Below, piece by piece: positions 40-56,586 of a stretch of 64,000 nucleotides of DNA. A program made the position numbers and the translations under genes. The notes under the pieces are model-generated. The model searched no databases. It had not been told where the DNA came from and saw nothing but the letters and a program-made list of their open reading frames with translations. Source of the stretch: Candidatus Latescibacterota bacterium (GTDB lineage Bacteria; Latescibacterota; CBDEFO01); contig CBDEFO010000007.1 in NCBI GenBank assembly GCA_965237525.1, forward strand, positions 512,001 to 576,000, written 5' to 3'. How positions within the stretch are numbered: the first letter of the stretch is position 1; each line of letters starts with the position of its first letter.

Positions 40-63
40 CCCCCAATAGATTCAATCGGGGGG
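40..63. repeat. 21-bp mini-palindrome family, locus 1
   Basis: cccccaatagattcaatcgggggg, one mismatch to consensus CCCCGATAGATTCAATCGGGG. Confidence 0.85.
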
Positions 64-342
64 ATTAAGACGATCCTTACAGGTACAGTTCGAAGGAGTC
101 TTCTCTTCTTGAAGGTGCTAGCGGCCATGGTTGAGTCCATTTAGGTACCCCTTGTTCCTCAGAATCCTGTGGGTCTAACCTTAAGGAAAACATACTTTGC
201 ACAGAAGCTCCAATTAGTTGGGACACCAGGAGGTGCTAGATTCTTCCTTCTATGCCCTTTCATAAGGTATGATACGAGATCCCTCTTAAAAGTAAATAAC
301 AACATAGAAAAGTCAGCAAAACAAATTATACGAGAAGGAATT

Positions 343-1242
343 ATGATGAAAAACATATTTGCGGTATCTACCATTCTGGTATCTGTGCTTTTTACAGTCG
401 GGCCGGGTATTGCTCATCTGCGGTCAGAAAGGACATTCGTAGCTGTCCAGGTGCCTATCAATACCAGTGAGTTCCAGAACATTAAGGTAGACGGTGACCT
501 CAGCGAGTGGGCTAACGTTCCTGATTTGCTATGGGTGACGCATGCCGATTTGATAGAGACCGTGCGGGGCCTCGGGGATCCGGACTCCTCCAACCTTGCC
601 GAAAGGATAATCGTGGGGTGGAGTCCGGTGACCAACCTGATATACACGATGGAGGATAGGTACGACGATGTTTCTCTTTACTTTACATCAGAAACCATTT
701 ACGAGATGCTCGAGTGGGTCATCGACGCTGACCACAGCGGAGGACGGTACCAGGTCATGCAAGATCTCGATCTGGACCCGGACAGGAACAACTCATCTCA
801 GGCTCAGAATTACCACTATTTTCTGAAGAGAAAGGATCCCATCTGGTTTTGGGGAGCAGCCTCGTGGCCGGGCTTACCTCCTTATGCCCACATAAGCTGG
901 ACCTTTGAGGGTGAAATGGGCGGACCGGGCACATTGAATGTTGAGACATACTTCATGGGATTTGATGATATAGATTTTAGAAGTGTTGATGATAGCATAA
1001 TACATACGTATGAGGAGGGCGCTATCATCGGAGTAGGCTTTGCCGTTATAGACACTGATAAGAGCGAAGTTGATGGCTACAACGGTTTCTGGACGAACAG
1101 CGGGGCCACAAGATTGGATAGACATGCCGACAACTTCGTCGACTATCTCCTGGCCCCCTTTGATCCGAATATCTGGGTGCCCGCCGGGACAGCAGTTGAT
1201 CGTGACACGCCAGGTCGCGTCAAGTCAACCTTGTCCGAATAA
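343..1242 (+). CDS. Secreted protein, possible CBM9/DOMON-like sugar-binding fold; paralog of 12222..13094
   Basis: ATG at 343 after RBS agaagga; signal peptide; VDGDLSEW, GWSPVTNL and IDADHSGG shared with the paralog; C-terminus TAVDRDTPGRVKST. Confidence 0.75.
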   Translation: MMKNIFAVSTILVSVLFTVGPGIAHLRSERTFVAVQVPINTSEFQNIKVDGDLSEWANVPDLLWVTHADLIETVRGLGDPDSSNLAERIIVGWSPVTNLIYTMEDRYDDVSLYFTSETIYEMLEWVIDADHSGGRYQVMQDLDLDPDRNNSSQAQNYHYFLKRKDPIWFWGAASWPGLPPYAHISWTFEGEMGGPGTLNVETYFMGFDDIDFRSVDDSIIHTYEEGAIIGVGFAVIDTDKSEVDGYNGFWTNSGATRLDRHADNFVDYLLAPFDPNIWVPAGTAVDRDTPGRVKSTLSE

Positions 1243-1898
1243 GAAACAAGTGATCAGGTGCTTCACAGGACTAAAGTATGGGGCCAAGGCATTTGAGTTA
1301 GTTCCACTTGCCCCGAATGAGTGCGGGCGTTTCCTGTCTGATATGCTGAGGAGCACCAGTCCGAAATGTGAACAGAAATCGGATATTCGTACGATATGAT
1401 ATGCGAAATTGAAAAATCGACGATAGCCTTTGTCTATATCTTTTGAGACCCCTGAAGGTTCGACCTTATGGTTGAAATAGTGTCCTCGGATAGGATTGCA
1501 ATGGTCAAGATACTTCGGGTCCTACAAAGGGCAAGGTTTTGGCTGATAGCGTGGTCCTGGAAGCTTTTGTTGATATGACACACGTATCCGCAGGGGCGAA
1601 GATACACTCTATGATACACGAAAGCATTGCTTCTGGCAATCAGGAAATTCCTTTTCCTTCGACGAGTTCTTCGATACTTTTTGGAGACCCAGGTTAGCAG
1701 TAGTCTGGCCTGAAATCAAAGGCAATATTCGGGCCAATTAAACTGTTCCTGGCCTAGACCAACGGTGTGAACGAGCCTGTGGGTATATCGTAGAGATATC
1801 TTCTCGTGAAAGGCTTTACAAGGCAGTCGTCCTGTCCGGAAACTTCTGGTTTCCCTCTTAATTCCAGGACCTAAAGCCATGTAATTTCGCCTTAGCGC

Positions 1899-2720
1899 TT
1901 AACCCTGATCCTCCAGTGGCGCAGGCAATTCAGGGTAGTTGGGGCCTTTGATGGTTGCGCCGATGGGGACGCCTTCGACACTCTCCATTCGAGGGTTCCA
2001 GTTATCGCCCATCCTGCGCGTGTTTCCCGGCATCAGGTGCAGGATGTAGCTGCGGCGCGCGTTGTCCGTCTTGTTGCCATATGAGCCGTGGAAGGTCAGA
2101 CAGTGGTGGAAGTGGCAATGGCCGGCCGGGACCTCGCATGGGACGGGTGTGGAATCCGCCTCGGGGGGAATCCCTGGCTGTTTGAGCAACCACTCTGGAT
2201 CACCGACGTCGACTTCGTCACGCGTGTAACGGAGTTCCCAGCGATGGCTTTGGGGGATCACGTACATGCAACCGTTGTCAACTGCCGCATCGTCCAGGGC
2301 AATCCAGCAGGTTCCTAATTCGGCGGGTCCAACGTTGTCCCAGTAAGTGTAATCCTGATGCCATGCGAGCGCGGCCTTGCGGTCGAAGGGTGGTTTGTAG
2401 ATCATCTGGTCCTCCCACACCCGTACGGGCCCGACCATCAGATCGTGGGAGAGTGAACTGATCGCTTTGTTATTCCAAACATTGGCGAAGACAGGATCGT
2501 GGCGAAACAAATTGACAATTTTTACTGACGGCAATTGCCCCTTTTCTTTAGACTTATCTACTGTTTCTCCCATCAGGTGGCTGGGAAACGCGACGCGACC
2601 CTCAAGGATAAGGTCGATACGCTCCTTAAGTGTGCTGATCTCCTCGTCTGATATGACCCGAGGCCCGGCCAAGTAACCGTTGATTCGATAGAACTCGATT
2701 TGTTTCTCCGTAAAGTGCAT
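1899..2720 (-). CDS. Phytanoyl-CoA dioxygenase (PhyH) family Fe(II)/2OG oxygenase
   Basis: WHQD, WIALDDA..DNGCM..IPQSH, FHHCLTFHGS..N motifs; RBS aggaga before ATG 2720. Confidence 0.92.
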   Translation of the reverse strand: MHFTEKQIEFYRINGYLAGPRVISDEEISTLKERIDLILEGRVAFPSHLMGETVDKSKEKGQLPSVKIVNLFRHDPVFANVWNNKAISSLSHDLMVGPVRVWEDQMIYKPPFDRKAALAWHQDYTYWDNVGPAELGTCWIALDDAAVDNGCMYVIPQSHRWELRYTRDEVDVGDPEWLLKQPGIPPEADSTPVPCEVPAGHCHFHHCLTFHGSYGNKTDNARRSYILHLMPGNTRRMGDNWNPRMESVEGVPIGATIKGPNYPELPAPLEDQG

Positions 2721-3437
2721 GGCTTCTCCTTTCTGGTTAGGCAATACACTTGTCTCGTTACGTCATGGGTTGGATCGGATATGAACTGAGGTGTCCCTCA
2801 GGGAGTTCCCAGTTACCTGAGAACAAGGCCTACCTTTCGTTGCGACAGCAGTCTCTACCCATGTTAAACTTGCCCGAAATACCGTTGATGATCTCGATTT
2901 GTCGCTGGTTGAGTCGTCATCGTGGAACGGATACACCTTAATCACCTGTCTGCTAGAGGGAATTGTTGTGAGTCAAGTACGTTGTAACCTGCCGCATTCT
3001 TGCCTGCAGAGCTATCAATAATGCTGGCGGTTTTTTGATTCGGGCGAGCCCCAAAAGTCCGGTGTACCACTGGAATGTCTGCAAGCAGAAATTTGCACTC
3101 CGGAAGTCCTGACCAAAGGGTCTACCAGGTGGCTAGCAGTGAAGATTCTCAAGCCCGAAAAGTTTGATTTTTGTCTCGATCAACCAGTTGTTCGCGTCAC
3201 CCCTTATGTTGGGAGGATTTTCGACGTTCGCTGCGCCAGGCAAGGAGAATTCAGCGGCAGATTTTTACGTTCCAGAGATACACGCCCAAGGTCCGGGGTG
3301 TTCACCTCTTTGGCAAGGAGAGCTCCTACAGGTCTGCCCGACGATGATACCACACGCCAGACATACTTCCTGTTACGGACTGTTGAGAACGAGCTAACCC
3401 ATTTTCTATTCCAACCTTAAGGGTGCAGTTACAGCTC

Positions 3438-8344: not shown

Positions 8345-8379
8345 CCCCCGATTGCTTCTATCGGGGATTCAATCGGGGG
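8345..8379. repeat. 21-bp mini-palindrome family, locus 2 (compound)
   Basis: cccccgattgcttctatcgggg + attcaatcggggg, directly after the stop codon at 8380. Confidence 0.85.
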
Positions 8380-10155: not shown

Positions 10156-10157
10156 AG

Positions 10158-13842: not shown

Positions 13843-14808
13843 TCAATCGCGGGAGGGTGCGGGCGACCAAGAAGGCATATGGTCGTCCGCCGGGTTGTCG
13901 GTCAGCCTTATGGGGTTTGTACCGTCAGCGTTCATCACGTAAATTTCCCCATTGCCATCGCGAGTTGAATGAAAGACGATCTTTGTCCCATCCGGAGACC
14001 AAGAGGGCGAGTCGTCTATGACCCTGTTATCGGTCAGTCGTGTCTGGTTTGTCCCGTCACTATCCATCACGTAGATTTCATAGTTGGCATCGCGGTGTGA
14101 CCAAAAGAGGATCTTCTGCCCATCCGGAGACCAGGAAGGTCTAAAATCGTTCGCTGTGTTGTCGGTCAACCTTATGGGGTGCGTTCCGTCAGCGTTCATC
14201 ACATAGATCTCATAGTCGCCATCCGAATCTGACATAAAGATAATCTTCCTCCCATCCGGAGACCAAGAAGGAAAGCCGTCGCGCGCCGGGTTGTCAGTCA
14301 GCCTTATCGGGTCTGTTCCGTCAGCGTTCATCACATAGATCTCATAGTTGCCATCGCGGTGTGACCGAAATGCGATCTTCTGCCCATCCGGCGACCAGGA
14401 AGGCGCGGTGTCATACTCGGAGTTGTGGGTCAGCCTTATTTCGTTTGTTCCGTCAGGGTTCATCACGTAGATCTCCCCGTTGCCATCGCGATATGACACA
14501 AATGCTATCTTCGTCCCGTCCGGCGACCAAGAAGGAAGGTAGTCCCTCACCGTGTTGTAGGTCAGTCTTATTGGGTTTGTACCGTCAGCGTTCATCACGT
14601 AAATTTCGGAGCTTTTTGAAGTAAAGTAATCATTGCTCTGGCGGTATGACACAAAAGCGATCTTCGGCTTTGGTAGACTGGATTTTGTTGTATTTGTGCT
14701 ATTGTCTTGACCAAAGCCTGTCTCCAGTGGCAGCAAGAGGACACTCAGCAGAGCTATGAGATGAAAAGCCCCTCGTGATCCTATAATGGTATTTCTCCTT
14801 TTTGACAT
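13843..14808 (-). CDS. TolB-like beta-propeller (PD40 repeats) secreted protein
   Basis: Repeated [25 protein letters not shown] units; signal peptide. Confidence 0.92.
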
Positions 14809-21376: not shown

Positions 21377-21418
21377 ATATAGATTAAGAGATGACAATTT
21401 GCCCCAACGTATGTATTA

Positions 21419-21445
21419 GTAGTGGCGAGGGAACCTCGCCACTAC
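21419..21445. repeat. GTAG-type REP-like perfect hairpin
   Basis: gtagtggcgagg-gaa-cctcgccactac, 12-bp arms. Confidence 0.75.
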
Positions 21446-21463
21446 GTGGTTTGCTGGTACTTC

Positions 21464-21960
21464 GTGCCTCCTGCACAAGGTGCCTCCTGCACAAGGTGCC
21501 TCCTGCACAAGGTGCCTCCTGCACAAGGTGCCTCCTGCACAAGGTGCCTCCTGCACAAGGTGCCTCCTGCACAAGGTGCCTCCTGCACAAGGTGCCCTCC
21601 TGCACAAGGTGCCTCCTGCACAAGGTGCCTCCTGCACAAGGTGCCTCCTGCACAAGGTGCCTCCTGCACAAGGTGCCTCCTGCACAAGGTGCCTCCTGCA
21701 CAAGGTGCCTCCTGCACAAGGTGCCTCCTGCACAAGGTGCCTCCTGCACAAGGTGCCTCCTGCACAAGGTGCCTCCTGCACAAGGTGCCTCCTGCACAAG
21801 GTGCCCCCTGCACAAGGTGCCCCCTGCACAAGGTGCCCCCTGCACAAGGTGCCTCCTGCACAAGGTGCCTCCTGCACAAGGTGCCTCCTGCACAAGGTGC
21901 CCCCTGCACAAGGTGCCCCCTGCACAAGGTGCCTCCTGCACAAGGTGCCCCCTGCACAAG
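21464..21960. repeat. Tandem array of 31 x 16-bp units GTGCC(T/C)CCTGCACAAG
   Basis: Counted directly; one 17-bp unit at 21592; no spacers. Confidence 0.97.
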
Positions 21961-22173
21961 GGAGACAGACACGGACACGGTGCGTGCAGGGTCTGGTCTC
22001 AAAAGCGGGATGACCTGGCCCCCACATTTAATTTCAGTTAGTCATGTGTTACTTTAACCTAATCGTCGTTGGTTAAACCTAATCGCTTGAATCCTAACTT
22101 ACTCTTTCTAATATAAATACGGGTCCTTAGAAGCATATAGTTAGTGCACCTGGGAATCTTTCGAACAGGTCTA

Positions 22174-22196
22174 CCCCCGATAGATTCAATCGGGGG
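22174..22196. repeat. 21-bp mini-palindrome family, locus 4
   Basis: cccccgatagattcaatcggggg; the 21-bp core is flanked by gtctac on both sides. Confidence 0.95.
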
Positions 22197-22197
22197 T

Positions 22198-23767: not shown

Positions 23768-23812
23768 CCCCCGATCGCCCCCGATAGACTCAATCGGGAG
23801 TTCATTCGGGGG
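23768..23812. repeat. 21-bp mini-palindrome family, locus 5 (copy nested in a copy)
   Basis: cccccgatcg[cccccgatagactcaatcgggag]ttcattcggggg. Confidence 0.9.
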
Positions 23813-33510: not shown

Positions 33511-33542
33511 GTCCCTCTTTCTCTTAGTGTGGGTTCCCCATT

Positions 33543-33620
33543 TTAGACTGCGCTTTCTTCCCCCTGCAAAGTTTCAAGCACTACCTTGGTCTTGAATTGT
33601 GGACTATACGTCTTATTTAC
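33543..33620 (-). pseudogene. IS3-family OrfA N-terminal remnant
   Basis: KTYSPQFKTKVVLETLQGEES resembles the IS3 HTH start. Confidence 0.55.
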
Positions 33621-33669
33621 TTTGCAATCTAAATCTAATAATTCTGTGTGCGGGCTATACTCGAGAGGA

Positions 33670-33698
33670 AAAATACCAAGAACAATCTTGGATGTCAA
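33670..33698 (-). promoter_or_regulatory. sigma70-like promoter
   Basis: TTGACA-17 bp-TATTTT upstream of the FAH operon. Confidence 0.5.
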
Positions 33699-33810
33699 CA
33701 AAAACTCAACATTTCGGTCTATTATGACATCTGGATATTTACCTGACTTATGTCTGTTCCCCTTCAAGTGAATAACGGCTAACCACAGTTGTGCAGCCCA
33801 GATATCGACC

Positions 33811-33966
33811 GTGGCAACATTAAAAAAACAGCGCCCCAACTTGATTTACGCTGGTTCCGGATATTCTTATCTGCAAGATTGGCTCCCTAACGTCGCGCAA
33901 GCCGTAGTGAGCGAAAAGATGGTCGACTTTGTCGGCTTGGGACGTATGGTCCTGGCTTACCCGGAT
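33811..33966 (+). pseudogene. NADH:flavin oxidoreductase C-terminal fragment
   Basis: GSGYSYLQDWLPNVAQAVV...DFVGLGRMVLAYPD, cut off by the cassette remnant. Confidence 0.7.
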
Positions 33967-34224
33967 GTTCGGGTCGATGATCGCGGCCACGCTATCCAGG
34001 ATCTTCGGATGCGTCGCAATCTCCCAGATGAACTGTTGATCAAAATGTCGGTCGAACAGCCCCGTCTGAGCTTTTTCACGTCCCCCTTTCGCCTCCAGTG
34101 TATCAAAACAATCCCGGTAATACTGCACCTCCTTCTTATCAGTCATCACCCAAATGCCAGACAGAAAACCATCCTGCTCGTACGCCTCAACTTGCCGCTC
34201 ACTTACCATGTTCATTTGCCTAAC
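33967..34224 (-). pseudogene. Integron cassette 3: truncated duplicate of the PhyH cassette
   Basis: About 93% identical by eye to 35339..35596; begins at core GTTAGGC. Confidence 0.88.
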
Positions 34225-34350
34225 GGTATGCCAATGAGCCGCCTGCGTTATTGGCATACCGAACTCTTGAACAATCGTAATGGCTCGATGCGGAAGTTCA
34301 ACTTCGAAAAATCTGGAACTCAGCAGGTCGGCTCGCTTGGCGTGTTCTAC
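34218..34350 (-). other. attC site (133 bp)
   Basis: Minus strand: GTAGAAC-acgcc-aagcgagc-cgacctgc...gcaggcg-gctcatt-ggcatacc-GTTAGGC; R'' is complementary to the cassette start GTTCTAC at 34796. Confidence 0.85.
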
Positions 34351-34398
34351 GGCGACGACCAACACTTCGCCGATGAAGACCAGGGCGACGCGACCACA

Positions 34399-34749
34399 TC
34401 ACGACCCTGGCCAATCGGCACCAGCACCCGGCCCGAGAACATGCCAGTGCATGTGCGGCGTCACACCAGGAGCCGCAGCATTGGCCCGCATGTAGAACCC
34501 CTCACCATCCAGGAGGCCGAGCGAAGTCGCGGTTGCTTGAATCGCTCGGACCATCGACGACAGGAGGTCACCGTCGAGGGCGGCCTCGTCGAGTAGTGAC
34601 GGGACGTGGCTCTTGGGGACCACAACGACGTGAATCTCGGCCGCGGGTCTGGGATGGTGGAAAGCGAGGACGCGGTCGTCCTCGTAGACGCGCTGCACGT
34701 CGAGCTTCCCCGAGAGGACATCTTCGCAATACCAGTCACGCTTAGCCAT
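34399..34749 (-). CDS. HIT family protein (integron cassette 2)
   Basis: VYEDDRVLAF..P.P...HVVVVPKSH, HMHWH. Confidence 0.9.
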   Translation of the reverse strand: MAKRDWYCEDVLSGKLDVQRVYEDDRVLAFHHPRPAAEIHVVVVPKSHVPSLLDEAALDGDLLSSMVRAIQATATSLGLLDGEGFYMRANAAAPGVTPHMHWHVLGPGAGADWPGS

Positions 34750-34789
34750 CAAACCACCACATCCTTTCGGAAAAGAATAAGACCCGTCC

Positions 34790-34808
34790 GTAGAACGTCT
34801 GGTTAGGC
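34790..34808 (-). other. Collapsed 19-bp attC
   Basis: Minus strand GCCTAAC-cagac-GTTCTAC, 11 bp after the PhyH stop. Confidence 0.75.
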
Positions 34809-34819
34809 ATGGACCATGG

Positions 34820-35587
34820 TTACCTTATAGGAAACGGATGTCCTTGTACCTTGAAGTTCTTTTCACGGTCTGTGCCCCTTACCAGAATGGGTCTCCACTT
34901 CAAATCGATGCCAAGCGGACCCGCCGCGATCGGCTTGACGTGCGTGGGAATATAACGGACTGTCAGTCCGCAGCGGCGCCGGGGCGATCGATTCGGCAAA
35001 CTACCATGGATAAGCATCCCATCGTGCAGCGAAATCTCACCCGCTCGCAGGATACAATCCACTGCGTCCTTCTCCTCTTGCTCGGTTAGCTCGACCTCTT
35101 GATTGATGCTTAGCAAGTTGCCTTGCTGCTTTGATTTACCGTGATTCATCAGTCGGTCCCGGTGCAGCCGTGGGATAACGCGCATGCACCCGTTGCCACG
35201 ATCGCTGTCGTCCACTGCATACCAGGCCGAGACTTCGATTGGCGGTTCCAGTCCCCAGTACCGCAGATCTTGATGCCACGCCACGAACTTCTCCTCCGGC
35301 CCATATTTGCAGAAGAAATGGGTGGAAAGTAGCAGCACGTTCGGGCCGATAATCGCGGCCACGCTATCCAGGATCTTCGGATGCGTCGCAATCTCCCAGA
35401 TGAACTGTTGATCAACATGTCGGTTGAACAGCCCTGTCTGAGCTTTTTCACGTCCCTCTTTCGCCTCCAGTGCATCAAAAGAATCCCGGTTATACTGCAC
35501 CCCTTTCTTATCAGTCATCACCCGAATTCCAGACAGAAAACCATCCTGCTCGTACGCCTCAACTTGCCGCTCACTTAACATGTCCAT
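34820..35587 (-). CDS. PhyH-family dioxygenase (integron cassette 1)
   Basis: WHQD, GCMRVIP, HDG..IHGS.PN; ATG 2 bp after core GTTAGGA. Confidence 0.92.
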   Translation of the reverse strand: MDMLSERQVEAYEQDGFLSGIRVMTDKKGVQYNRDSFDALEAKEGREKAQTGLFNRHVDQQFIWEIATHPKILDSVAAIIGPNVLLLSTHFFCKYGPEEKFVAWHQDLRYWGLEPPIEVSAWYAVDDSDRGNGCMRVIPRLHRDRLMNHGKSKQQGNLLSINQEVELTEQEEKDAVDCILRAGEISLHDGMLIHGSLPNRSPRRRCGLTVRYIPTHVKPIAAGPLGIDLKWRPILVRGTDREKNFKVQGHPFPIR

Positions 35588-35589
35588 TT

Positions 35590-35640
35590 TCCTAACTAGG
35601 GCTTATACAGTTTTCTATGCTAAAAACCTGTATACAGCTA
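35590..35640 (-). other. Putative attI site
   Basis: Non-palindromic ...gcatagaaaactgtataagcccta|GTTAGGA between the intI 3' end and the first cassette. Confidence 0.6.
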
Positions 35641-35779
35641 TTTGAGCTATATAAGACCCCATTGAAATATTAAGAAAAAACCTGCAATATTAAAAAGCTC
35701 ATTCTGTTAAGTCATAATTATCATAAGTTTTGTAGGAATCATATACAGACTCCATAAAACCCTAATTCAATATCAATCC

Positions 35780-36060
35780 GCAAAAAATTGTCAGCAGGGC
35801 TTATCACTCCCTTTCCACAACCGTTTAGAACGTGAGTATAAATCATTGTCGTATTGACTTCCTTAAATGGCCGAGTATTTCCTGAACTGTGCGATTATCA
35901 TAACCATCTGCCAGCAAATGAGTCGCAAAAGAATGTCGAAAGGTGTGCGACGAGGCATGTTTTGTGATATCAGTTTTACGGACGGCCTCTTTCACAACTC
36001 TCTGTACGATCGTTTCATGAACGTGATACTGTCCCTCTTCGCCAGTCGTTTTATTATCGG
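35780..36060 (-). pseudogene. intI: Integron integrase, 3' remnant with a frameshift
   Basis: [21 protein letters not shown]...[27 protein letters not shown], frameshift, then [25 protein letters not shown]; includes the IntI-specific insert. Confidence 0.88.
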
Positions 36061-36359
36061 GTAATGGGGCATCTCCGATGGTGGGGTCACCGACATCGAG
36101 GACTAAGAGGACTAAGATGGTATCCGGCAGCTTTCCCCTGGATGACCTCTGCAAGAATGGACCCGAATTCGAACAATTGGCGCGTATAAAGAACGCGTTG
36201 AAAGCCTGAGTTTACGCGCTTCAATTAGCCGAACCCAGTCACCCATGCAAGCGTACAACATAACAAACATCGATCATCCGTAGATTTCACTGATACCGCA
36301 GATTTCATATTAGTGTTTTATGAGTAATCTGCGGATGTTAATGCGCCACACGGACAACG

Positions 36360-37109
36360 TCAGCGCGTGAAAAGTGTGCCTCGCACGTAGTCCGCAGCAT
36401 CCGACACCAGGAAGGCAATAACGCGTCCGACACCATCTGGTGACCCGAGCTCCTTCTTCGCTGCTTCGACAGCTTGATCAGGGGATCGACCTTGGCGCTC
36501 AGCCGCCTCCGCGATGATTTCTAGCTTCATGACCGTTTCAATCGAACCTGGACACAGCACGTTTACGCGAATATTTCGTGGTTCAAGATACTTGGCTAGC
36601 GTTATGCCAAGACCGTTGACACCGCCTTTGCTCGTAGCATACGCAATTGATGAACTCGGACCTGTGACGCCGGCGCCGGATGCGATCAGCACCACTACAC
36701 CACGCTGACTTGCTTCTAAAAGAGGAGACGCATACTTGGCACACAGAAAGCTGCCTTTAACGTTCACATCGATCACATCCTCGAAAACGTCAATAGGCAC
36801 TTCTTCTGGCTGCAGATACGCGCCGCGACACACGCCGGCGGCACACACTAACGCATCCAGCCGACCATGTTTTACTCGCACGTGGTCCATCAGATTCCCA
36901 ACTTCGTCCGCATGTCGCACATCGGTGCGTAAGAATCGGGCATCGCCACCCGCCTCTCGGATCGCTGCGGCAGCTGCTTCACCAACATCTTTCTCGATAT
37001 CGGCCATCATAACGTGGGCGCCTTGCATCGCACATAGTCTGGCCGCCGCCCCCCCAATGCCCCGGCCCCCGCCAGTCACAACAATCACTTTTTCGGCTAA
37101 ATCAATCAT
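36360..37109 (-). CDS. SDR family oxidoreductase
   Basis: TGGGRGIG, YATSK, IRVNVLCPG. Confidence 0.93.
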   Translation of the reverse strand: MIDLAEKVIVVTGGGRGIGGAAARLCAMQGAHVMMADIEKDVGEAAAAAIREAGGDARFLRTDVRHADEVGNLMDHVRVKHGRLDALVCAAGVCRGAYLQPEEVPIDVFEDVIDVNVKGSFLCAKYASPLLEASQRGVVVLIASGAGVTGPSSSIAYATSKGGVNGLGITLAKYLEPRNIRVNVLCPGSIETVMKLEIIAEAAERQGRSPDQAVEAAKKELGSPDGVGRVIAFLVSDAADYVRGTLFTR

Positions 37110-37208
37110 TACACATAACCTCCTTCCGCAAGGGCCCAACGGAAATCCTGGGATCGACAAGCCGCGTTGCGTGTTGATCCCCTGAAATCCCAAAGAGCCT
37201 ACACAATA

Positions 37209-38072
37209 TTAGCCAGATCGAATCTCTATATCCAACTCAGCTAGCTTCCTCTTTACGAATGTAGATGCTTGTGGGACTAGACTCGCGGGCAAATGTTCGA
37301 TCAATCCGAAGCCATCAGGCAACAGGGCCTCAAATCGTCGAAAAAATGTGCCAAAGTCCAACAATCCATCGCCTGGCACCGTTCCGCTGATATGAACAGT
37401 CAATCGATCCTCAACATAGACATCATTGATATGCGCAGCAATAATATAAGGGCCAAGTGTATCAAACAAATGGTTCAACAGAGACGTTGTATCATAGAGC
37501 TTCTGAACATCACTCACAAAATTAACCGGATCTAGACTCAACTTAACCCACGGAGACTCGGTGCGTTCGATGATTCTCTTGATCCGCTCCGGACTATCTA
37601 GAGGACTGATGACGTGGGTTTCGAAAGCAAACGGAATGCCATGAACCTCGCAAGCAGAAACAGCTTCTCGCAGAATGTCAACAATGGCATCCTCTACTTC
37701 AGGTGAATGATTTGCAGGATGTGGTGTCCAGGCACCAGCCGGATTCATGCTTCCGGGTCGAATGCCGGCCATGTCTGCACCAAGATCGGCCGCGAATGTG
37801 ACTGTATTCTGCAACTGCCGAACGGCCTCATCACGATTTGAGTCACCAGGGGAAACAATGACCTGTGGCACTGTCCAGGCTTGCACGACCCGTATACCGT
37901 GATTAGCAAATACAGATCGTGCATTTTGAAATGCGGCCGGAGAAAAGGGCTCTCGATCAGTCGTCAGATGGATACCAATACCGCTAAAGCCTAAACTGGT
38001 AATTCTCGCGGCCGCACGATCATCAATGGCGTCTAAATCATTGGGAAAGAAGCCGACTATGCCAAGTCGCAT
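37209..38072 (-). CDS. Sugar phosphate isomerase/epimerase (xylose-isomerase-like TIM barrel)
   Basis: FETH, LDPVN, AHIND, PGDGLLDF, IEH. Confidence 0.85.
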   Translation of the reverse strand: MRLGIVGFFPNDLDAIDDRAAARITSLGFSGIGIHLTTDREPFSPAAFQNARSVFANHGIRVVQAWTVPQVIVSPGDSNRDEAVRQLQNTVTFAADLGADMAGIRPGSMNPAGAWTPHPANHSPEVEDAIVDILREAVSACEVHGIPFAFETHVISPLDSPERIKRIIERTESPWVKLSLDPVNFVSDVQKLYDTTSLLNHLFDTLGPYIIAAHINDVYVEDRLTVHISGTVPGDGLLDFGTFFRRFEALLPDGFGLIEHLPASLVPQASTFVKRKLAELDIEIRSG

Positions 38073-38323
38073 CGCTACACCTCCGCGTGGTGGTGGACTG
38101 AAGACGTGAAACGAGACGCGTGACTTTGTACGTCAGTCACCAAATTACGAATCACGCAAGACAGCCGCTCGCACGGCCGGCGCTCCATATTTCCGAAAGC
38201 GACTTTGTACTTCGAATCTCGGTTTCATGTAAATATCTTTCGTCACATTAGAAATGGGAATCCCGTACGGGATAACGAGGAAATCTCGTCATTCAGCACA
38301 CAGGGCTCCATTATACAAGATCA

Positions 38324-38351
38324 ATTATACAAGATCAATGCATATTGTCAA
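38324..38351 (-). promoter_or_regulatory. sigma70-like promoter
   Basis: TTGACA-16 bp-TATAAT; the -10 lies in a 14-bp tandem duplication. Confidence 0.55.
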
Positions 38352-38439
38352 GCCAATTATGGTCGAAGAGTTGACCCAAGACACGGTTGAGAGGAAGATT
38401 ATGATTATTAAGCCATTTGTACAAGAAACTGATCTTGTG

Positions 38440-38592
38440 ATTCAAACTCAGTCATCACAGGTCGACAACACACCATTTCTGAGCATCATCATTCCCACAT
38501 ACAACGAAGCCAGCCGGCAGCCGGCCACGTTTGAAATGGTCCCTTCCTTTCTCGATCAAGAACCACTTGATCTCATTCTAAGCTTCGCGTGA
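38440..38592 (+). pseudogene. GT2 glycosyltransferase N-terminal remnant
   Basis: PFLSIIIPTYNEASR followed by an early stop. Confidence 0.65.
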
Positions 38593-38696
38593 AAATAGTC
38601 TGGACAAGATTATAGGATCCAAGATAGTAGACAGCTTAGAGGAAGAAGCAATTTCACCTATCTACTGACTTCATAAAGCCAACAAGTTTTATCAAA

Positions 38697-38804
38697 CTAC
38701 TTAATGTTGCATATTTCCACCAAATCCTTTGTTATAGCCTCCACAAGCCTTTTCTTCTGTTCATCTGTGCGTCCCCCTAACATCTTGACATTTATGTAAG
38801 GCAT
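38697..38804 (-). pseudogene. 4-oxalocrotonate tautomerase family, truncated (absent from ORF track)
   Basis: MPYINVKMLGGRTDEQKKRLVEAITKDLVEICNIK*; Pro after Met, 35 aa. Confidence 0.8.
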
Positions 38805-38864
38805 TTGAAACACCCTTTTCAGTGAGTAGATTGATGACTTTAGCTCCTCTTTAAAGTGGAGCAA

Positions 38865-39701
38865 TTATCCATCCTGTTGGGCGTGTAGTTCCATAATCTT
38901 TTTGGGCAGCTCTTTGATCTTGGGGAGGGCATCCACAGAGCGCGGCGGGGGAGCCACTTCAAAGTGGATGAATCCCTTATAGTCGATGTCGTAAAGCGCC
39001 TGGAAGATCTCCAGCCACGGCATATTGCCGTCGAACGGGGCGCGGTGATCTATCCCATCGTAGAAGTCGTGAAGGTGGACATGGCGCAGCCTGGAACCGA
39101 CCTTATGGAACTTTTCGGTTGGGACTCCAGAAAGTGTCATAGGGTTTTGACCTTCTGAATTGCGCACGTGCCCGATGTCGATGATCATCCCAAGCTGAGG
39201 ATGACCGATGGAGTCGATAAACTCTATGTTGTCCTCAATGGTCTGTCCCGGCCCGAAGTTCTCGACCAGCAGGTGCACGTCCTCTCCTTCAAAGTGCCGG
39301 AGGAGTTCTTCCAAGCTTTTCCAGGTGGCAGGTGTCTTGACGCGCCCGTGGCATCCCCAGATATTTCCGCCCATCCACAGCAGTGTGCCAATCTGCCTTT
39401 TGCAATTATCCACCCTTTTGCGCCTTTCGGCTTCGCTGTCCACCTCAAAGTTGGTTTGGCCGGAATGATACGTCCCGACGGCGAGTCCAAGATCATTGCA
39501 TATATCCTTGATTATCTTCATTGACTTGGGATCGTCCAATGCAAAGTGATCGGGATCCTCGGGGAAGCCGATCTCAATAGTCCCGATGTCGTTCTTTTTG
39601 ATCTCGCCCAACGTCTCTCGATCCAAAGGCCTTTTGCGGCGAAAAATAAATGTCGACACCGCCAGGCGATTCCTGATCTCTTTCTCAGTATAGAAGGCCA
39701 T
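38865..39701 (-). CDS. Sugar phosphate isomerase/epimerase family
   Basis: VEN, DIGH, HVHLHD, HRAPFDG, FE. Confidence 0.88.
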   Translation of the reverse strand: MAFYTEKEIRNRLAVSTFIFRRKRPLDRETLGEIKKNDIGTIEIGFPEDPDHFALDDPKSMKIIKDICNDLGLAVGTYHSGQTNFEVDSEAERRKRVDNCKRQIGTLLWMGGNIWGCHGRVKTPATWKSLEELLRHFEGEDVHLLVENFGPGQTIEDNIEFIDSIGHPQLGMIIDIGHVRNSEGQNPMTLSGVPTEKFHKVGSRLRHVHLHDFYDGIDHRAPFDGNMPWLEIFQALYDIDYKGFIHFEVAPPPRSVDALPKIKELPKKIMELHAQQDG

Positions 39702-39740
39702 GTTTTTTAAGTTTCCTCCTTAATATTACGGTCTGGTTTG

Positions 39741-39842
39741 AAGTGGAGCAATTATCCATCCTGATGCGCGTGCATTTCCATGATTTTTTTGGGCACCTCT
39801 TTGATCTTAGGGAGGGCATCCACAGAGCGCGGTGGGGGAGCC
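39741..39842 (-). pseudogene. 3' end of a lost tandem paralog of 38865..39701
   Basis: 102-bp diverged copy of 38854..38955. Confidence 0.8.
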
Positions 39843-40210
39843 GGTTCGAGTGTACTTCTCTAGGAAAATCGGTGCCGCCTCATCTATGGTCTCTATCGAT
39901 TGCCGCTCCAGTACGGCCCAGACCGGTGCCTGTGTGCGCTCACAGCTTTCGATGATCTTGAACATGTTCTACAACTCCCAGTGTGGGGTCTCCTCATGCT
40001 AATGATTCTTTTGGACAGCTCGTAAGACCAGACTAATTGAAACTTTTTCAAACTATAAGGAGGTCTTTTCGGTGTGATATCCAATCTACACTACTTTATC
40101 CAGTTGTTCTGCTACGGCTTGCAAGTCCGGACGCAAATGTCACCACCTTGAACTTAGCCTCCATTGACTCCTCAACTTGCTCGGCGTCCCGGGGTAAACG
40201 GAAGCCGCTG

Positions 40211-40882
40211 TCACGAAGACAAGGAGTTGTACGCCTCCACGAGCCCTTTCAGAAATTCAGGATCCATGACGATCCCCTTGATTCCATTTACCACAAACTG
40301 AACTCCCACGCATAACAAAAGAAATCCCATGATTTTAGTCATGGCATTCATGCCGTTTGCGCCCATAAAGGCTAGGATCTTGCTGGCGCTACGGAGCACC
40401 ACGAAACAGAACAGGCAAACGACAAATATGCCGCAGATTATAGCAACGTAATCCAACCAATGCTGGACCAGTGACGTGAGCCCGATGGTGACAGCTATCG
40501 CACCCGGACCGCTCAGGCTGGGCATGGCCAGAGGGGTAAAAGATATATCTTTCTTCTGTCTGGACTCTTCTTCTTCTTCCGGTGTCTGTTCGTCCTCTCA
40601 CGAAGGGTTGAGCATCTGGATGCTAATACGGACAATCATGATTCCACCGGCGATACGGAGTCCCGGAGTCGAAATCCCAAAAAAGTTTAGGATCATTGTC
40701 CCGGCAACCAGGAATACGACTAGAATGGCAAACATGTAAATAATGCCCATCCGGATCTGCTGCGCTCGCTTTTCTTCCGAGTCTCCATCCGTAATGGCCA
40801 GGAACACCGGTGCCGTGCTGAAAGGATTTGCAATAGGAAGCAGCGCGGTAAAGGTGGTCAGAGCCAGCGCTATATTTAACAT
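40211..40882 (-). pseudogene. marC: MarC-family membrane protein with in-frame TGA at 40598
   Basis: IANPFS, LRIAGGI, PLAMPSLSGPGAI, MGFLL; both halves in the same frame. Confidence 0.88.
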
Positions 40883-40972
40883 CGTGGACCTCCTGTTTGT
40901 ATACCATCGACAGAGTACGTCTCAACGTCAGCTCATCCAGCCAATCGGATCATAATGTCTAACTGTCAATTC

Positions 40973-41246
40973 TAACCCAAATAATTCACAAAAAAAGCCG
41001 TGTATTAATTAAGGGATTGTATTATATTATAGTTATGCCGTTTAACCACCTTCGGTGTCATTGCGAGCCGAAGGCGAAACAATCCCCCCGATAGATTTAA
41101 TCGGGGGTTACTGTGGTAGATGTAATAGTCTCCGGCTCTCCTAGGAGACAACTATAAAACCTTGAGATTGCTTCCCCGATAGACTCAATCGGGGACCGCT
41201 TTGCTCCTCGCAATGACTCCAGCAAGTTTATGAATTAATCGGGTTA
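40973..41246 (+). mobile_element. MITE copy 2 carrying two mini-palindrome inserts (41084..41107, 41174..41194)
   Basis: Colinear with 28503..28738; C|TA...TA|G flanks. Confidence 0.9.
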
Positions 41247-41328
41247 GATAAACCTTATCACTACTTCCTTTGATCGGAATCCCATATAAGTTTCTATCGT
41301 AGATCCATGCTTTCATTTTTCCAATTTA

Positions 41329-42741
41329 CTACCTTTTTACCTCTTCAAATGCATCAAGAGCGTAATTTAAATCTTCTCTGGTATGTGCATCTGAAATCTG
41401 GACTCTTATTGTTTCATCCCCTTTAGGCACAACAGGAGCAACTAAACCAGTGACCAGAATTCCTCTCTTATAAAGTTCATTTACCATTCTCTTAACTTCG
41501 GCCGTGTCTCTTACTAGGACAGGAATAATTGGATGAATCCCTGGAACGGTACCAAATCCTATGTTTTGTATTCCTTCTCTAAAATTCTGGGTGTTTTCTC
41601 TTAATCGCGCAAGCATGCTCTTGCCTTCTTGACTATTTACGATATTTACAGCGGCAATTCCTGCATTAGCTTGACCGGGTGAAATGGGGTTTGTGAAGAT
41701 GTAAGTGTCCGCTTTTTGTCTGACAAGTTCGATTATTTCTTCACAGGCAGCAACATAGCCGCCTTCTGCTCCAAATGCTTTCCCTAATGTGCTTGTAATA
41801 ATATCAACACCATTTTCTTGAGTAACTTCTGGAGTACCTCTTCCAGTTTCTCCATAAGCTGCAGTACCATGAGAATCATCCATAATCGTTATCACACCAT
41901 CTTTGAATCTCTCATTATATTCTTTTGCTGAAGCCACTATCTCTGCCAAAGGTGCGTAATTGCCCCTCATACTAAAGACTCCGTCAAAGATTATGATTAC
42001 TCTTTCTATTTCGGGAGGCATAGTCTCTAATCTTTCTTCTAATCCTCTTATATTGCCATGTTGATAGATTCCGTGTTGCTCTGATGGAACTCCAGCGATA
42101 TCCAATGCGATATTTACTAAATCTGGTAAGGCACTTTCATCTTTTCCCATATGGAAGACTTGGTTAATCATTATCATTGCCCTGCTAAGCAGATCGGGGC
42201 CAGTTTCTAAAGCCTCTCTTAATTGCCCCACATCGTTGTGTTGGTAGATACCCTTATTCTCAGAGGGTACACCGGCAATCCTTATTGCTCTGGCAATGCT
42301 ATTATGATTAAGCTGATCACTGATCACATATGTCTGTCTATTCATTAAAGCTATTGCAACTCCTAAATTTGCCATATATGCGCAACTAAAGATCTTCGCA
42401 GCTTCTGTTCCATGAAAATCTGCTAAGTCTAATTCTAAATCTCTATGATAAACTGTTGTACCGTCAATAAATCTTACCCCTCCAGGATTAACACCCAATC
42501 TTTCTGATGCCGCTCTTTCTGCTTCAATTAATCTCCGATCTTGGGCTAATCCAAGATAATTATTTGAGTTCAACCTTAGAAATCTCTTATCCTCCTCATC
42601 TTCCAACAAAAATCTTGGACCCAAACCGTCACCTGGTGAGGCATATCCTACAATAACACGTTCGGGAGGTTTTAATCTTCCCTCTTTTCTTAATTCTTGA
42701 AGTTCTATTTGAAACGTTTCTTTTAGTTTATCTACCGGCAT
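41329..42741 (-). CDS. Glycine C-acetyltransferase/AONS-like PLP enzyme with an internal 60-aa duplication
   Basis: SNNYLGL, SDQLNHNSI, DGVFSM, DDSHG, STLGKAFG. Confidence 0.88.
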   Translation of the reverse strand: MPVDKLKETFQIELQELRKEGRLKPPERVIVGYASPGDGLGPRFLLEDEEDKRFLRLNSNNYLGLAQDRRLIEAERAASERLGVNPGGVRFIDGTTVYHRDLELDLADFHGTEAAKIFSCAYMANLGVAIALMNRQTYVISDQLNHNSIARAIRIAGVPSENKGIYQHNDVGQLREALETGPDLLSRAMIMINQVFHMGKDESALPDLVNIALDIAGVPSEQHGIYQHGNIRGLEERLETMPPEIERVIIIFDGVFSMRGNYAPLAEIVASAKEYNERFKDGVITIMDDSHGTAAYGETGRGTPEVTQENGVDIITSTLGKAFGAEGGYVAACEEIIELVRQKADTYIFTNPISPGQANAGIAAVNIVNSQEGKSMLARLRENTQNFREGIQNIGFGTVPGIHPIIPVLVRDTAEVKRMVNELYKRGILVTGLVAPVVPKGDETIRVQISDAHTREDLNYALDAFEEVKR

Positions 42742-45692: not shown

Positions 45693-45773
45693 CCCAGTGA
45701 AGAATAAGGGAATTATATACTTGCCACACACGATTGATTGTTGTATATTATGAGTAGAAAAGGAGGTGTTCAA

Positions 45774-46694
45774 ATGCAACCCAGCACTTTTGAGTTCTTC
45801 GACCGGTTCCCCGATGAAGATTCGGCACGAGAGTATTTGATTAACGCGCGCTGGCCGGATGGCATCATGTGCGTTCATTGCGGACACGATGAGGTTTGGC
45901 GCATCAGGGACGGGAAGCTGTTCACGTGCAAGGGATGCCGGAAGCAGTTTACGGTCCGTCTGGGAACAGTCCTGGAGGATTCGGCTATTTCGATTCGCAA
46001 GTGGCTGTATGCCATGTATCTGTTCGCAACTCACTCGAAGGGCATAGCGTCAACAAAGATGGCTGAGATGCTAGGTATCACCCAAAAGTCAGCTTGGCAT
46101 ATGGGTCACCGCTTGCGCAGGGCTTTCGAGAATGCGGACATCATCCTTTCCGGTATCGTTGAGGTCGATGAAACTTACATTGGAGGAAAGGAACGGAATA
46201 AGCACGAGAAGAAAAAGGTTCACGGAGGCCGTGGTTCAGTAGGAAAAACGGCCGTGCTTGGGATGCGTGAGCGTGGCGGGCAAGCTATTGCCTTTCCCGT
46301 GGGCAACACCACCCAGAGAGCTTTGAGCGGCAATGTCAATGCCAAGATCGCTGCCGGAAGTAAGGTTTACACGGATGAGCATTTGGGATACGGTGGGGTT
46401 GCGCATCGGCATCAGACAGTAACCCATAGTGCGGGCCAATACGTACGCGGGAAGGTCCACACAAACAGCATCGAATCTATGTGGGCACTTCTGAAGCGAG
46501 CGCATTACGGTATCTATCATCAGTGGATGAGCAAACATGGCCACCGCTACGTGACGGAGATTATCGGCCGTCAGAACATGCGGAAAATCCCCGCCTTTGA
46601 CAACAGTAACGGGTCGGGTATTACGCTGATTCGATTCATGATGGCCGCATTGGACGGGAAACGGTTGACCTACGGGAGGTTGATCCATGCGTAG
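45774..46694 (+). CDS. IS1595-family transposase
   Basis: Zn ribbon CVHCG..CKGC, VEVDETYIGG, YTDE, HTNSIESMW. Confidence 0.95.
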   Translation: MQPSTFEFFDRFPDEDSAREYLINARWPDGIMCVHCGHDEVWRIRDGKLFTCKGCRKQFTVRLGTVLEDSAISIRKWLYAMYLFATHSKGIASTKMAEMLGITQKSAWHMGHRLRRAFENADIILSGIVEVDETYIGGKERNKHEKKKVHGGRGSVGKTAVLGMRERGGQAIAFPVGNTTQRALSGNVNAKIAAGSKVYTDEHLGYGGVAHRHQTVTHSAGQYVRGKVHTNSIESMWALLKRAHYGIYHQWMSKHGHRYVTEIIGRQNMRKIPAFDNSNGSGITLIRFMMAALDGKRLTYGRLIHA

Positions 46695-47688
46695 TATCTT
46701 CGGAAGGTTGCTACGCAGTATCCCGAAAGACCTTCAGGCTGCTGATATGTCCACGTTCGCGGATTTGTTCTGTGGCATCGGGGGGTTTCATTATGCGGCG
46801 GAAGCCCTGGGGATGCGCTGCGTGTTTGCAAGTGACATAGATGAGGATTGTCAAAGGCAGTATGAACACAACTTCGCAAGACGTCCAAAGGGCGATATAA
46901 AGGGGGTCCGTGAGTCCGCCGTGCCCGACCACGATATTCTCTTTAGCGGGTTCCCCTGCCAGCCCTTTTCGATTATCGGTTCCAGACAGGGCATGTCTGA
47001 TGAGCGCGGCTCTTTGATTTTTGATATTGTCAGAGTGTTACGCGCAAAGCAGCCCCGTGCGTTTATGCTGGAGAACGTTGCCCAGTTGACAACAATCCAA
47101 GACGGAAAGGTCATGGCCAATATTCGGGAGATGCTGGAGGGTGTTGGCTACGAATGCGCCTATCGCGTGCTCAATGCGCTGGATTTTGGCTTGCCGCAGA
47201 AACGGGAGCGCGTCATAATCGTGGGCTTCCGGGATGACTCGATGAAGGGGTTCCAATGGCCGTCTAAAAAGAACGCGCATACACCCTTGTCAGAGATACT
47301 CGAAACGGACCCTGACAAGCGATTCTACGTCAGCAAACGCATACGTAACAAGCGCAGAGCAAAGCATACCGCAATGATCAAGCCAGCCATTTGGCACGAG
47401 AAGAAGGGCGGGGCTGTCAATAGCCATCCCTTTTCCTGCGCCTTGCGCGCGGGGGCATCCCACAACTACCTGCTCGTGGATGGGGAGAGACGCTTGACGC
47501 CCCGTGAGCAGCTTAGACTTCAGGGCTTCCCCGAACGCTTTGAAGTCATAGGGAACGATAGTCAAATCAGGAAACAAACAGGCAACGCTGTTCCGGTTCC
47601 CCTTGTTCGTTCCGTTCTCAAGCAGATACTTCATGCCGCGAGTCAGAATCTGAAGCAGGTTCGAGAAGCACGAACCCTTTCCGCTTAA
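46687..47688 (+). CDS. C5 DNA cytosine methyltransferase
   Basis: DLFCGIGG, GFPCQPFS, ENV, QKRER, RLQGFP, GNAV; alternative start 46747. Confidence 0.95.
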   Translation: MRSIFGRLLRSIPKDLQAADMSTFADLFCGIGGFHYAAEALGMRCVFASDIDEDCQRQYEHNFARRPKGDIKGVRESAVPDHDILFSGFPCQPFSIIGSRQGMSDERGSLIFDIVRVLRAKQPRAFMLENVAQLTTIQDGKVMANIREMLEGVGYECAYRVLNALDFGLPQKRERVIIVGFRDDSMKGFQWPSKKNAHTPLSEILETDPDKRFYVSKRIRNKRRAKHTAMIKPAIWHEKKGGAVNSHPFSCALRAGASHNYLLVDGERRLTPREQLRLQGFPERFEVIGNDSQIRKQTGNAVPVPLVRSVLKQILHAASQNLKQVREARTLSA

Positions 47689-55244: not shown

Positions 55245-55539
55245 AGACGTTTCAGATACTATGAAACGTTCGCTTCGGGAGGCTTGAGCTTTATGGTGCA
55301 ATGTTTGCGTGTTGACCGAGACAAAACGCGCAGGATGCGCAAAATTTGCATATCTTGAGAGCGGTGTGTTCAATCTTCATAGAAGTTGCTAATTATATAA
55401 GAGTTTGTAAAAAGGTCGCTTATCATCACATAAGAGGCCTTTTTTCTTATTTGCGCGCAGATGGCATGGCAGATGCTAATTCAGTCTACAGAGGATATAG
55501 GAAAACCTGCCAATAGGTTGCTGAATAAGGGGATAAAAG

Positions 55540-55796
55540 ATGGTCCTAGGCACGGACGTAACGATGGACAAAGACAGGAGTTTGAATAGATACCTGGAAG
55601 AGATTAAACCATATAAACGCTTGTCCACCCGGCAGGAGAGGGAACTTGCGGCAAAGACAAAAAAGGGAGACATAGAGGCCAGGGACAGGTTGGTCAGGGC
55701 TAATCTGCGCTTCGTCGTGAAGGTAGCAAAGGAATATCAAAACTGTGGGCTACCGCTAACTGATATCATAAGCCAAGGGAATATGGGCCTGATTAG
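55540..55796 (+). pseudogene. RpoD/SigA-type sigma70 N-terminal fragment interrupted by an IS
   Basis: YLEEI...LVRANLRFVVKVAKEY..GLPLTDIISQGNMGLI (regions 1.2 and 2). Confidence 0.88.
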
Positions 55797-55891
55797 AAGG
55801 CTTGTGAAAAACCCTTAAATGGAAAAAATAGTATAAAAACATTGACGGAGCAATCTCGATGTATTATATTATATGATTGATAATATTATAC

Positions 55892-56383
55892 ATGGAGGGA
55901 ATAATAACGCCACAAAAGAAGGAACAGACAAATCCGATATGTCACTATTTTCGGATGGAGGATTTAGTTCCCCAAGACCATATTCTCCGTCAAATTGATA
56001 AAGCGGTTGATTTTTCATTTGTACGAGACGTTGTGTCAACTTGTTATTGTACTGACAATGGCAGACTTGGTATTGACCCTGAGCTAGTTGTGCGTATAAT
56101 TCTTATCGGCTACCTGTATAATTTGAGTGAGAATAGACTTTGTCAGGAAGTGGCGATGCATGCGGCATATCGCTTATTTTGTCATCAGACATTTGAGGAC
56201 GAGGTTCCGGATCGGAGCACGATCAACAAGCTTCGCAATCACAAGTGGGCATCCAGTGGTTTGTTTGAACAGATAATGCATCAGATAGTCCAGCGCTGCA
56301 TAGATGTTGGTGTTGTGAGCGGTAGACACCTAAGTGTCGATGGCACTCAGATACAAGCTGATGTTTCAGTAAAGAGTATTGAT
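55892..56383 (+). pseudogene. IS1182-family transposase, N-terminal half
   Basis: EDLVPQDHILRQID, GIDPE, PDRSTI, VDGTQIQAD, then fused to MITE copy 3. Confidence 0.85.
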
Positions 56384-56586
56384 CCCCGATTGAGTCTATC
56401 GGGGAAGCAATCTAAAGGTTTTATAGTGGTCTCCTATGAGAGCCGGGGAGTATTACATCTACCACAGAATCGAGATTGCTTCGCCTTCGGCTCGCAATGA
56501 CACCGAAGGTGGTTAAACGACATAACTATAATATAATTCAATCCCTTAATTAATGCACTGCCTTTTTTTGTGAATTATTCGGGTTA
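56384..56586 (-). mobile_element. MITE copy 3, inverted and truncated at a mini-palindrome (56384..56404)
   Basis: Reverse complement matches 28503 onward; carries the second insert but not the first. Confidence 0.9.

Follow-up and report, generated by a model that had tools for sequence, protein, structure and literature searches.

A stretch of 64,000 nucleotides from a Candidatus Latescibacterota genome (GenBank assembly GCA_965237525.1, contig CBDEFO010000007.1, positions 512,001 to 576,000; hereafter the window) contains scattered copies of a small non-coding hairpin, which a first-pass annotation made from the sequence alone had described as a 21-bp palindrome behaving like a tiny mobile unit. 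The unit is 23 nt long, of the form Y-CCCCGATAGATTCAATCGGGG-R with a T.A or C.G end pair, and comparison of filled and empty sites outside the window bears out the proposed mobility. Copies have inserted into previously empty sites, their junctions include classes in which four target bases are lost or duplicated, and the same unit is present in a second phylum. We consider it very probable that the unit is mobile and reached its sites by insertion.

Insertion into previously empty sites

The source genome (G000, 4.58 Mb, 96.6% complete) was compared with a genome of the same genus (G001, here the sister genome; 4.5 Mb in a single contig, 98% complete), the comparison covering 2.0 Mb of the 4.5 Mb of the latter at an identity of about 94–95%. 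An anchored orthologue was obtained for 143 of 225 sister-genome copies and for 150 of 549 source-genome copies; of these, respectively 63 and 66 occupied exactly the same register in both genomes, 45 and 61 were unlike, in many cases just in the length of a run or the size of a nest, and for 35 and 23 a local register was lacking. Pairs with no more than six bases in place of the unit and no more than six flank mismatches were kept, giving 34 rows that are not all independent, as some share an event (passengers, nests), and of which a few keep remnants. The net gain was 19 bases in 15 pairs, 20 in six, 27 in six, 18 in three, 15 in three and 21 in one. A gain of 19 corresponds to the 23-nt unit minus four target bases and a gain of 27 to the unit plus four. 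This filled/empty comparison, which the first-pass annotation had proposed, defined empty sites, and polarity was read from two sources: multi-copy hosts, in which a single filled copy was set beside 135 or 134 empty hits, and nests, whose outer copy has the canonical motif. In an independent sequencing run, X7, one contig was 19 bases short at C4:151897, a site filled in runs X2 and X4, and an in-gene copy at C4:311432 was accompanied by two ATCAAT where its empty paralogues had one. Among nine relA loci from Deltaproteobacteria four were filled and five empty, with a gain of 27 and a near-exact 4-nt repeat; a pattern search for a deltaproteobacterial host repeat gave no match and its alleles were read from individual loci. 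In a ResB-like gene (L163, genome G065) the unit was present in frame (+15), and among the relatives L353–L360 a partly deleted copy was seen in L353 and six were empty.

The first-pass annotation had seen no consistent pattern at the junctions; loss or duplication of four bases was found instead. For the −4 class, copies nested within an intact outer copy were informative in that 37 of 53 had lost the same four loop bases, TAGA/TCTA, 22 of them oriented like the outer copy and 15 reversed. For the +4 class, 24 of the 507 sites left after deduplication had an exact 4-nt direct repeat immediately flanking the 23-mer (4.0 expected; 300 shuffles gave at most 9), and no 5-nt repeats were found. 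Similar 4-nt repeats were present at 10 of 218 sites in the sister-genome sample (expected 1.3), partly the same sites as in the source genome, and at seven of 66 sites in other taxa (expected 0.9), in four distinct contexts. Duplicated targets were preceded by a purine in 20 of 23 cases and followed by a pyrimidine in 19 of 23. A further 15 apparent TAG repeats would fit a four-base loss from a 7-nt tandem tract.

The unit was lengthened from 21 to 23 nt on the grounds that the bases immediately flanking the 21-mer pair with each other. These were T and A at 270 and C and G at 169 of the 552 source-genome sites, and were complementary at 442 sites, compared with a mean of 263 and a maximum of 291 for shuffled pairings; in other taxa the same two end types accounted for 61 of 64 sites. 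Direct repeats of 1–5 nt were not in excess at the 21-mer boundary, the excess being confined to the register of the 23-mer. Fourteen clean +19 pairs were chosen using positions beyond 3, which provide no control. Among them the filled allele differed from the empty one at position −1 in nine, at +1 in nine, at −2 in five, at +2 in three, at +3 in three and at −3 in none. The end pair therefore comes in with the unit, sometimes with one further base. The predicted fold is a stem of 8–9 bp with a 7-nt loop. Stem pair 4/16 was G.C in 462, A.T in 32 and T.A in eight of 553 copies, the A.T count being far above the approximately three expected by simple arithmetic from independent change; lineage expansion or template switching could produce such paired changes as readily as selection. 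Other small palindromes are present in the source genome, including a 17-nt sister, CCCCGATTAAATCGGGG, with 17 exact copies, the same Y and R ends and the same TAGA/TCTA nesting window, and also TCAGACAGGAATGTCTGA (20 copies), ACAGACAAGAATGTCTGT (16 copies) and CCCCCTTAATAAGGGGG (10 copies). In another genome the 17-nt sister lies just downstream of a reverse transcriptase (RT) domain match (G062:C45:2867-2885), possibly within the same 786-aa open frame.

The genome-wide count at up to three mismatches that had been suggested in the first-pass annotation returned 552 sites in the source genome, 117 of them exact, with 477 distinct flank pairs; 96 of the 552 belonged to flank families (largest 37, 10 and 10), that is, copies duplicated along with their host. 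A slightly degenerate pattern matched 259 times in the source genome, 216 times in the sister genome and once in G052, and was absent from 58 of 60 relatives. In a partial scan of a genome collection, matches were mostly in loci titled Ca. Latescibacterota, with the identical 21-mer also found in records titled Deltaproteobacteria and Thermodesulfobacteriota and in one Nanoarchaeia contig; five genomes among these other-taxon carriers held 2–18 copies each. About 130 metagenome stretches contained the unit and no match was obtained in the viral contigs searched. The densest cluster, at C8 740-752 kb, proved to be a tandem gene duplication. A pair of genes, fabF-like and prfA-like, is present together with its copies both on contig C2 and at C4:540000-550000; the two versions differ slightly and possibly represent a strain haplotype or an assembly duplicate.

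A self, NTS-like, heptamer or GTAG-type motif was found near 312 of 525 deduplicated copies, compared with 441 of 2879 intergenic control positions. The preference for other hairpin repeats noted earlier was therefore upheld; a requirement for them was not, because none of the screened motifs was present near the remaining 213 copies. Fifty-eight copies lie deep in open reading frames (ORFs), some of which are spurious products of a crude ORF caller. Among 20 hand-picked, likely real ORFs, six pass curated NCBIfam cut-offs (ProA, MeaB, Fmt, phosphoglucosamine mutase, DinG and LpxD), and the in-frame PIDSIG, PDRFNRG and PRLNLSG inserts predicted in the first-pass annotation do exist. Compared with solved homologues, approximately nine residues are added in a FabF-like protein and seven in MeaB, and in the sister genome proA carries a larger nest (+33 bases) with the reading frame kept. 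Where length is readable, in-gene copies survive only at frame-preserving lengths.

Copies in the window

When the window was searched for the 21-mer with up to three mismatches, 17 strand matches corresponding to 11 loci were obtained, and none in 100 shuffles. All ten loci listed previously were recovered together with an eleventh, at 13832, that had been overlooked; the loci stood and the exact starts did not, the earlier numbers having included a flanking base or an outer copy. The 21-mer starts are 41, 8346, 15086, 22175, 23779, 27527, 30328, 41086, 41174 and 56384, plus 13832. The 23-nt units and their contexts are as follows.

40..62, plus strand: 23-nt unit with C.G end pair and one stem mismatch; common to the sister genome
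8345..8379, minus strand: compound copy; the nest is 12 nt longer in the sister genome
13831..13853, plus strand: decayed copy with 3 mismatches, overlapping the stop codon of ORF 13843-14808; common to the sister genome
15085..15107, no strand assigned: decayed copy beside an NTS-like (GCAATC) repeat; common to the sister genome
22170..22200, plus strand: exact 23-nt unit (22174-22196) between the two copies of a 4-nt direct repeat, TCTA (22170-22173, 22197-22200)
23769..23812, plus strand: nested pair, inner unit 23778-23800 within an outer copy; common to the sister genome
27517..27563, plus strand: nested pair, inner unit 27526-27548 within an outer copy, in a GTAG/CTAC repeat; common to the sister genome
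30327..30349, plus strand: exact 21-mer within a CTACTGT heptamer tract; common to the sister genome, which retains the 5' end C
41085..41107, plus strand: unit in a multi-copy NTS-like composite repeat, the majority of host copies being without the unit
41173..41195, plus strand: passenger unit in the same composite as 41085, with a TT|AC junction; largest flank family
56383..56405, minus strand: unit ending another copy of the composite seen at 41085, where a DUF772 transposase fragment (55877-56500) reads through it in frame at its 3' end

Eight of the 11 copies are common to the sister genome and three come or go with a larger host; no clean single-unit polymorphism was seen among the 11 relative to that genome, nor among the matches listed for four sequencing runs on window positions 22001-42000. 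The evidence for mobility consequently comes from elsewhere in the genome. The 8345..8379 allele looks like a collapsed nest because the nest in the sister genome is 12 nt longer. The exact unit at 22174-22196 forms a predicted DNA hairpin of −9.9 kcal/mol (z −4.45), and an empty allele of this site was looked for and not found. The gtctac repeat recorded there in the first-pass annotation fits a real minority class of 4-nt duplications; GATAG at 27514, read as a target repeat, belongs instead to the outer copy. Two generalizations drawn from the window held locally and failed across the genome: location outside intact coding sequences, roughly correct here (13832 overlaps an ORF stop and 56384 lies in the DUF772 fragment), is contradicted by the 58 copies deep in ORFs, and the shared orientation (eight plus, two minus, one tie) gives way to 141 and 118 copies by strand.

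Several neighbouring features were also observed. The composite repeats at ~40974-41244 and ~56380-56500 are multi-copy and NTS-like with the unit as passenger, ~40974-41244 is wholly absent at the orthologous site of the sister genome, and in one contig of run X7 11 bases replace window positions 41065-41206. At ~28503-28740 there is a repeat of ~240 bp resembling a MITE (miniature transposable element with inverted repeats), with dozens of copies in the sister genome; two hairpins occurring 135 and 133 times in the source genome probably belong to this repeat or to a similar element. In the C8:56200 region, the gene next to 22175 has a paralogue that bears a different short hairpin at the equivalent position, suggesting a reused insertion site. 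Positions 45738-47688 hold a gene for an IS1595-family transposase with a C5 cytosine methyltransferase gene directly behind it, and positions 21384-22057 are a low-complexity stretch, probably a tandem array, with six overlapping ORFs on both strands.

Mechanism and competing explanations

With moderate confidence, we propose that a trans-acting nuclease nicks the target at R^Y steps four bases apart and that the 23-nt unit is joined after trimming or fill-in. The junction geometry suggests that staggered nicks would fall at two purine-pyrimidine steps, that the donor would be the folded 23-nt hairpin, and that the four target bases between the nicks would be lost (net +19) or duplicated (net +27). 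Movement would be by copy-in rather than cut-and-paste, the +20 and tailed +27 forms could arise where a base or several bases of donor flank are occasionally brought along, and the unit may have originated as the hairpin core of a CGTC/NTS-like repeat. More tentatively, and on balance doubtfully, this might amount to a new transposition chemistry, in which a gene-less, tagless 23-nt hairpin without room for transposase ends is inserted through symmetric R^Y nicks, with 4-nt loss or duplication, by an enzyme belonging to none of the RAYT, Ssn, RT and DDE families, the unit having crossed phyla unchanged and adding peptide loops to housekeeping enzymes.

A number of observations weigh against this proposal. 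No transposition event was observed, and 19 of the 34 ortholog pairs are not +19. Several +27 pairs bear a donor-like CAGG/CTTG tail instead of a target repeat, and replacements of 8 and 14 nt occur in deltaproteobacterial hosts. The same inner variants recur among composite nests, which may propagate as intact blocks or through gene conversion, and loop inversion by template switching could explain both nest orientations and the paired stem changes without selection. The ProA insert adds only approximately two residues relative to a distant solved homologue, and the duplication class is not significantly enriched in genes (five of 52 compared with 19 of 455 elsewhere; Fisher p 0.088). Finally, each enzyme family considered (RAYT, Ssn-like, RT, four-helix-bundle and DUF559) is missing or broken in at least one of the source and sister genomes. 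RT was found in G001 and G062 only, of five genomes; the four-helix-bundle family PF05635 is absent from the source genome and represented by one copy with a stop in the sister genome, and occurs in eight of nine other carriers and 10 of 26 non-carriers; DUF559 gave two weak matches in the source genome and none in the sister genome. These families may still be involved, because GTAG- and NTS-type repeats persist here without their enzymes. The first-pass annotation had suggested looking for copies clustered beside a RAYT, GIY-YIG or RT gene, and no such shared enzyme gene was found. Judged by eye, the 69 ORFs with copies on both sides looked mostly like metabolic genes and insertion sequence (IS) fragments, and the neighbours of 64 sites in other taxa included no recurring real protein.

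A serious though less probable explanation dispenses with a dedicated enzyme, host replication or repair inserting the unit with guidance from a handful of shared bases (for instance CGA/TCG), either through template switching or because a short single-stranded donor anneals at a gap or fork; the hairpin foot would bridge a gap of approximately four bases and gene conversion would spread composite nests. This is consistent with the failure to find an enzyme common to the two genomes, with the CG at the empty centre of five of the 14 clean +19 pairs, like the unit arm, with donor-like bases at −2 in five of the 14, with the variation in junction sizes and with recurrence of the same inner variant in composite nests. 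However, this route does not readily account for exact 4-nt duplications that follow a purine and precede a pyrimidine, the presence of 552 copies in one genus and none in 58 of 60 relatives is left unexplained, and a replication-strand bias is absent (135 versus 139 copies by GC-skew sign, summed by hand).

A rather unlikely alternative is that the core of a CGTC/NTS-like repeat was set free as the unit and is mobilized by a single-strand GIY-YIG nuclease of the Ssn type, whose presence in these lineages would be intermittent. CGTC repetitive extragenic palindromes (REPs), dRS3 and NTS-SRM repeats, as described in the available text of PMC3733652 and PMC11893778, have an 8-bp stem and intragenic copies, as does the unit; deltaproteobacterial NTS-like repeats are near-identical to it in core, those of G061–G063 having cores 1–4 bases from unit variants, and the exact 21-mer occurs in a full TGTC-tagged frame in locus L285. 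NTS-like motifs flank 87 of 525 copies compared with 115 of 2879 control positions, and the source genome holds one short Ssn-like GIY-YIG gene (96 aa) between NTS-like inverted repeats that differ from the unit (L001:1409-1767, C4 ~479800-480160, the gene itself at C4:479839-480126, inside an apparent short tandem duplication). Set against this, no homologue was found in the sister genome, which has its own insertions, nor in G061, G063 or G064, and the CGTC/TGTC tag with AT at the stem base is kept by one of 552 source-genome copies. The available text of PMC11893778 describes SsnA as cutting a few bases upstream of the hairpin, as needing bases outside the palindrome and as not cutting double-stranded DNA. 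CGTC REPs are also like the unit in that no dedicated transposase is known for them. In contrast to this whole group of repeats, the unit has a 7-nt loop and no tag or tail, occurs as singlets rather than head-head dimers, does not flank an ssn gene and inserts into such repeats. Membership in the group was rejected on the tag count and on the different repeat flanking the sole ssn-like gene.

An ordinary REP or REPIN moved by a since-lost RAYT is far less probable still. The size and hairpin form are REP-like, and GTAG REPs and REPINs are likewise short, abundant, mostly extragenic palindromes with lineage-specific expansion in the available text of PMC3116915 and PMC3733652. RAYT/Y1 genes are present in all nine deltaproteobacterial carriers tested, and enzymes do get lost here, because GTAG-type repeats remain in the source genome without a RAYT. 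However, Y1 genes also occur in 16 of 26 non-carriers, and the RAYT/Y1_Tnp profile (PF01797) was unmatched in both the source and the sister genome, in agreement with the absence of a RAYT gene noted in the first-pass annotation. GTAG and CTAC stand at the stem foot of only 18 and 17 of 552 copies, within host repeats, and doublets are rare, with 461 of 552 copies singlets and 16 having an inverted neighbour within 200 bp; the polymorphic unit here is the singlet, a form described as an immobile remnant of REPINs in the available text of the same two papers.

Equally improbable, and as a general account refuted by the empty alleles, is the reading of the unit as a site with a set function (that of terminator, operator or uptake signal) or as a mere passenger of larger MITEs or ISs: eight window copies are common to the sister genome and the flank families are in its favour, but distinct flank pairs number 477, in-frame copies lie in enzymes, a T-run follows one of 552 copies, 67 of 492 copies (13.6%) lie in convergent gaps compared with 13.5% of intergenic DNA, orientation to flanking tandem genes is unbiased (170 same direction, 186 opposite) and an Rfam search of the window gave no match. 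An intrinsic terminator was rejected on the T-run and direction counts, and some sites may have a secondary function.

Relation to known repeats and significance

The small dispersed repeats (SDRs) of cyanobacteria are the closest kind of element. SDR1–8 of the Nostocaceae, described by Elhai and colleagues in 2008, are reportedly hairpins of ~20–27 nt with paired stem changes, and are said to nest within themselves, to lie in heptamer repeats and to have filled and empty alleles; they are not known to have an enzyme. The 23-nt unit resembles them as a dispersed hairpin of 20–30 nt with paired stem changes, filled and empty sites, self-nesting and occurrence in heptamer repeats, and differs in its unrelated sequence. 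The likeness is one of kind and not of membership, because the hosts here belong to other phyla. The comparison also draws on the available text of PMC2884548; that of PMC5861425 reports no SDR-like repeat in HIP1-rich cyanobacteria outside the Nostocaceae, and that of PMC4390886 places SDR5 precisely between bases 3 and 4 of HIP1. In contrast to SDR5, the 23-nt unit is not tied to one target word, and four bases of its target are lost or doubled.

Some MITEs moved by DDE transposases (IS5, IS1182 and IS1380 types) have inverted ends and 4-bp targets. The unit also has inverted ends and a minority class of 4-bp YNNR duplications, and DUF772 transposase genes are present in the source genome, but a length of 23 nt probably leaves no room for two ends that a transposase could bind. 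This candidate was rejected for want of a consistent target-site duplication, the 4-nt repeat being present at 24 of 507 sites and the commonest junction losing four bases. The 209 lone arms have no common continuation (top count 3), IS ends not having been catalogued alongside. The Rickettsia palindromic element RPE-1 is about 150 bp long; the unit is far shorter, and most of its copies are intergenic and alter the length by a number not divisible by three. Insertion in frame into housekeeping enzymes is the shared feature. The Rickettsia elements are mentioned in PMC3733652.

What the first-pass annotation put forward as its best candidate for an undescribed system is not wholly undescribed in kind, SDRs and untagged REPs being comparable. 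No description of the unit sequence or of the −4/+4 rule turned up in the literature covered; most subscription papers, which may bear on this, and the supplements of PMC3733652 and PMC11893778, which could hold a related core, lie outside this coverage. The junction signature, in which a 23-nt unit comes with the loss or duplication of four target bases that have a purine in front and a pyrimidine behind, is seen in two phyla. It narrows the chemistry, and donor and target substrates for an assay can be defined from it. The family also contributes loops inserted in frame to enzymes such as ProA, MeaB, Fmt, LpxD and RelA.

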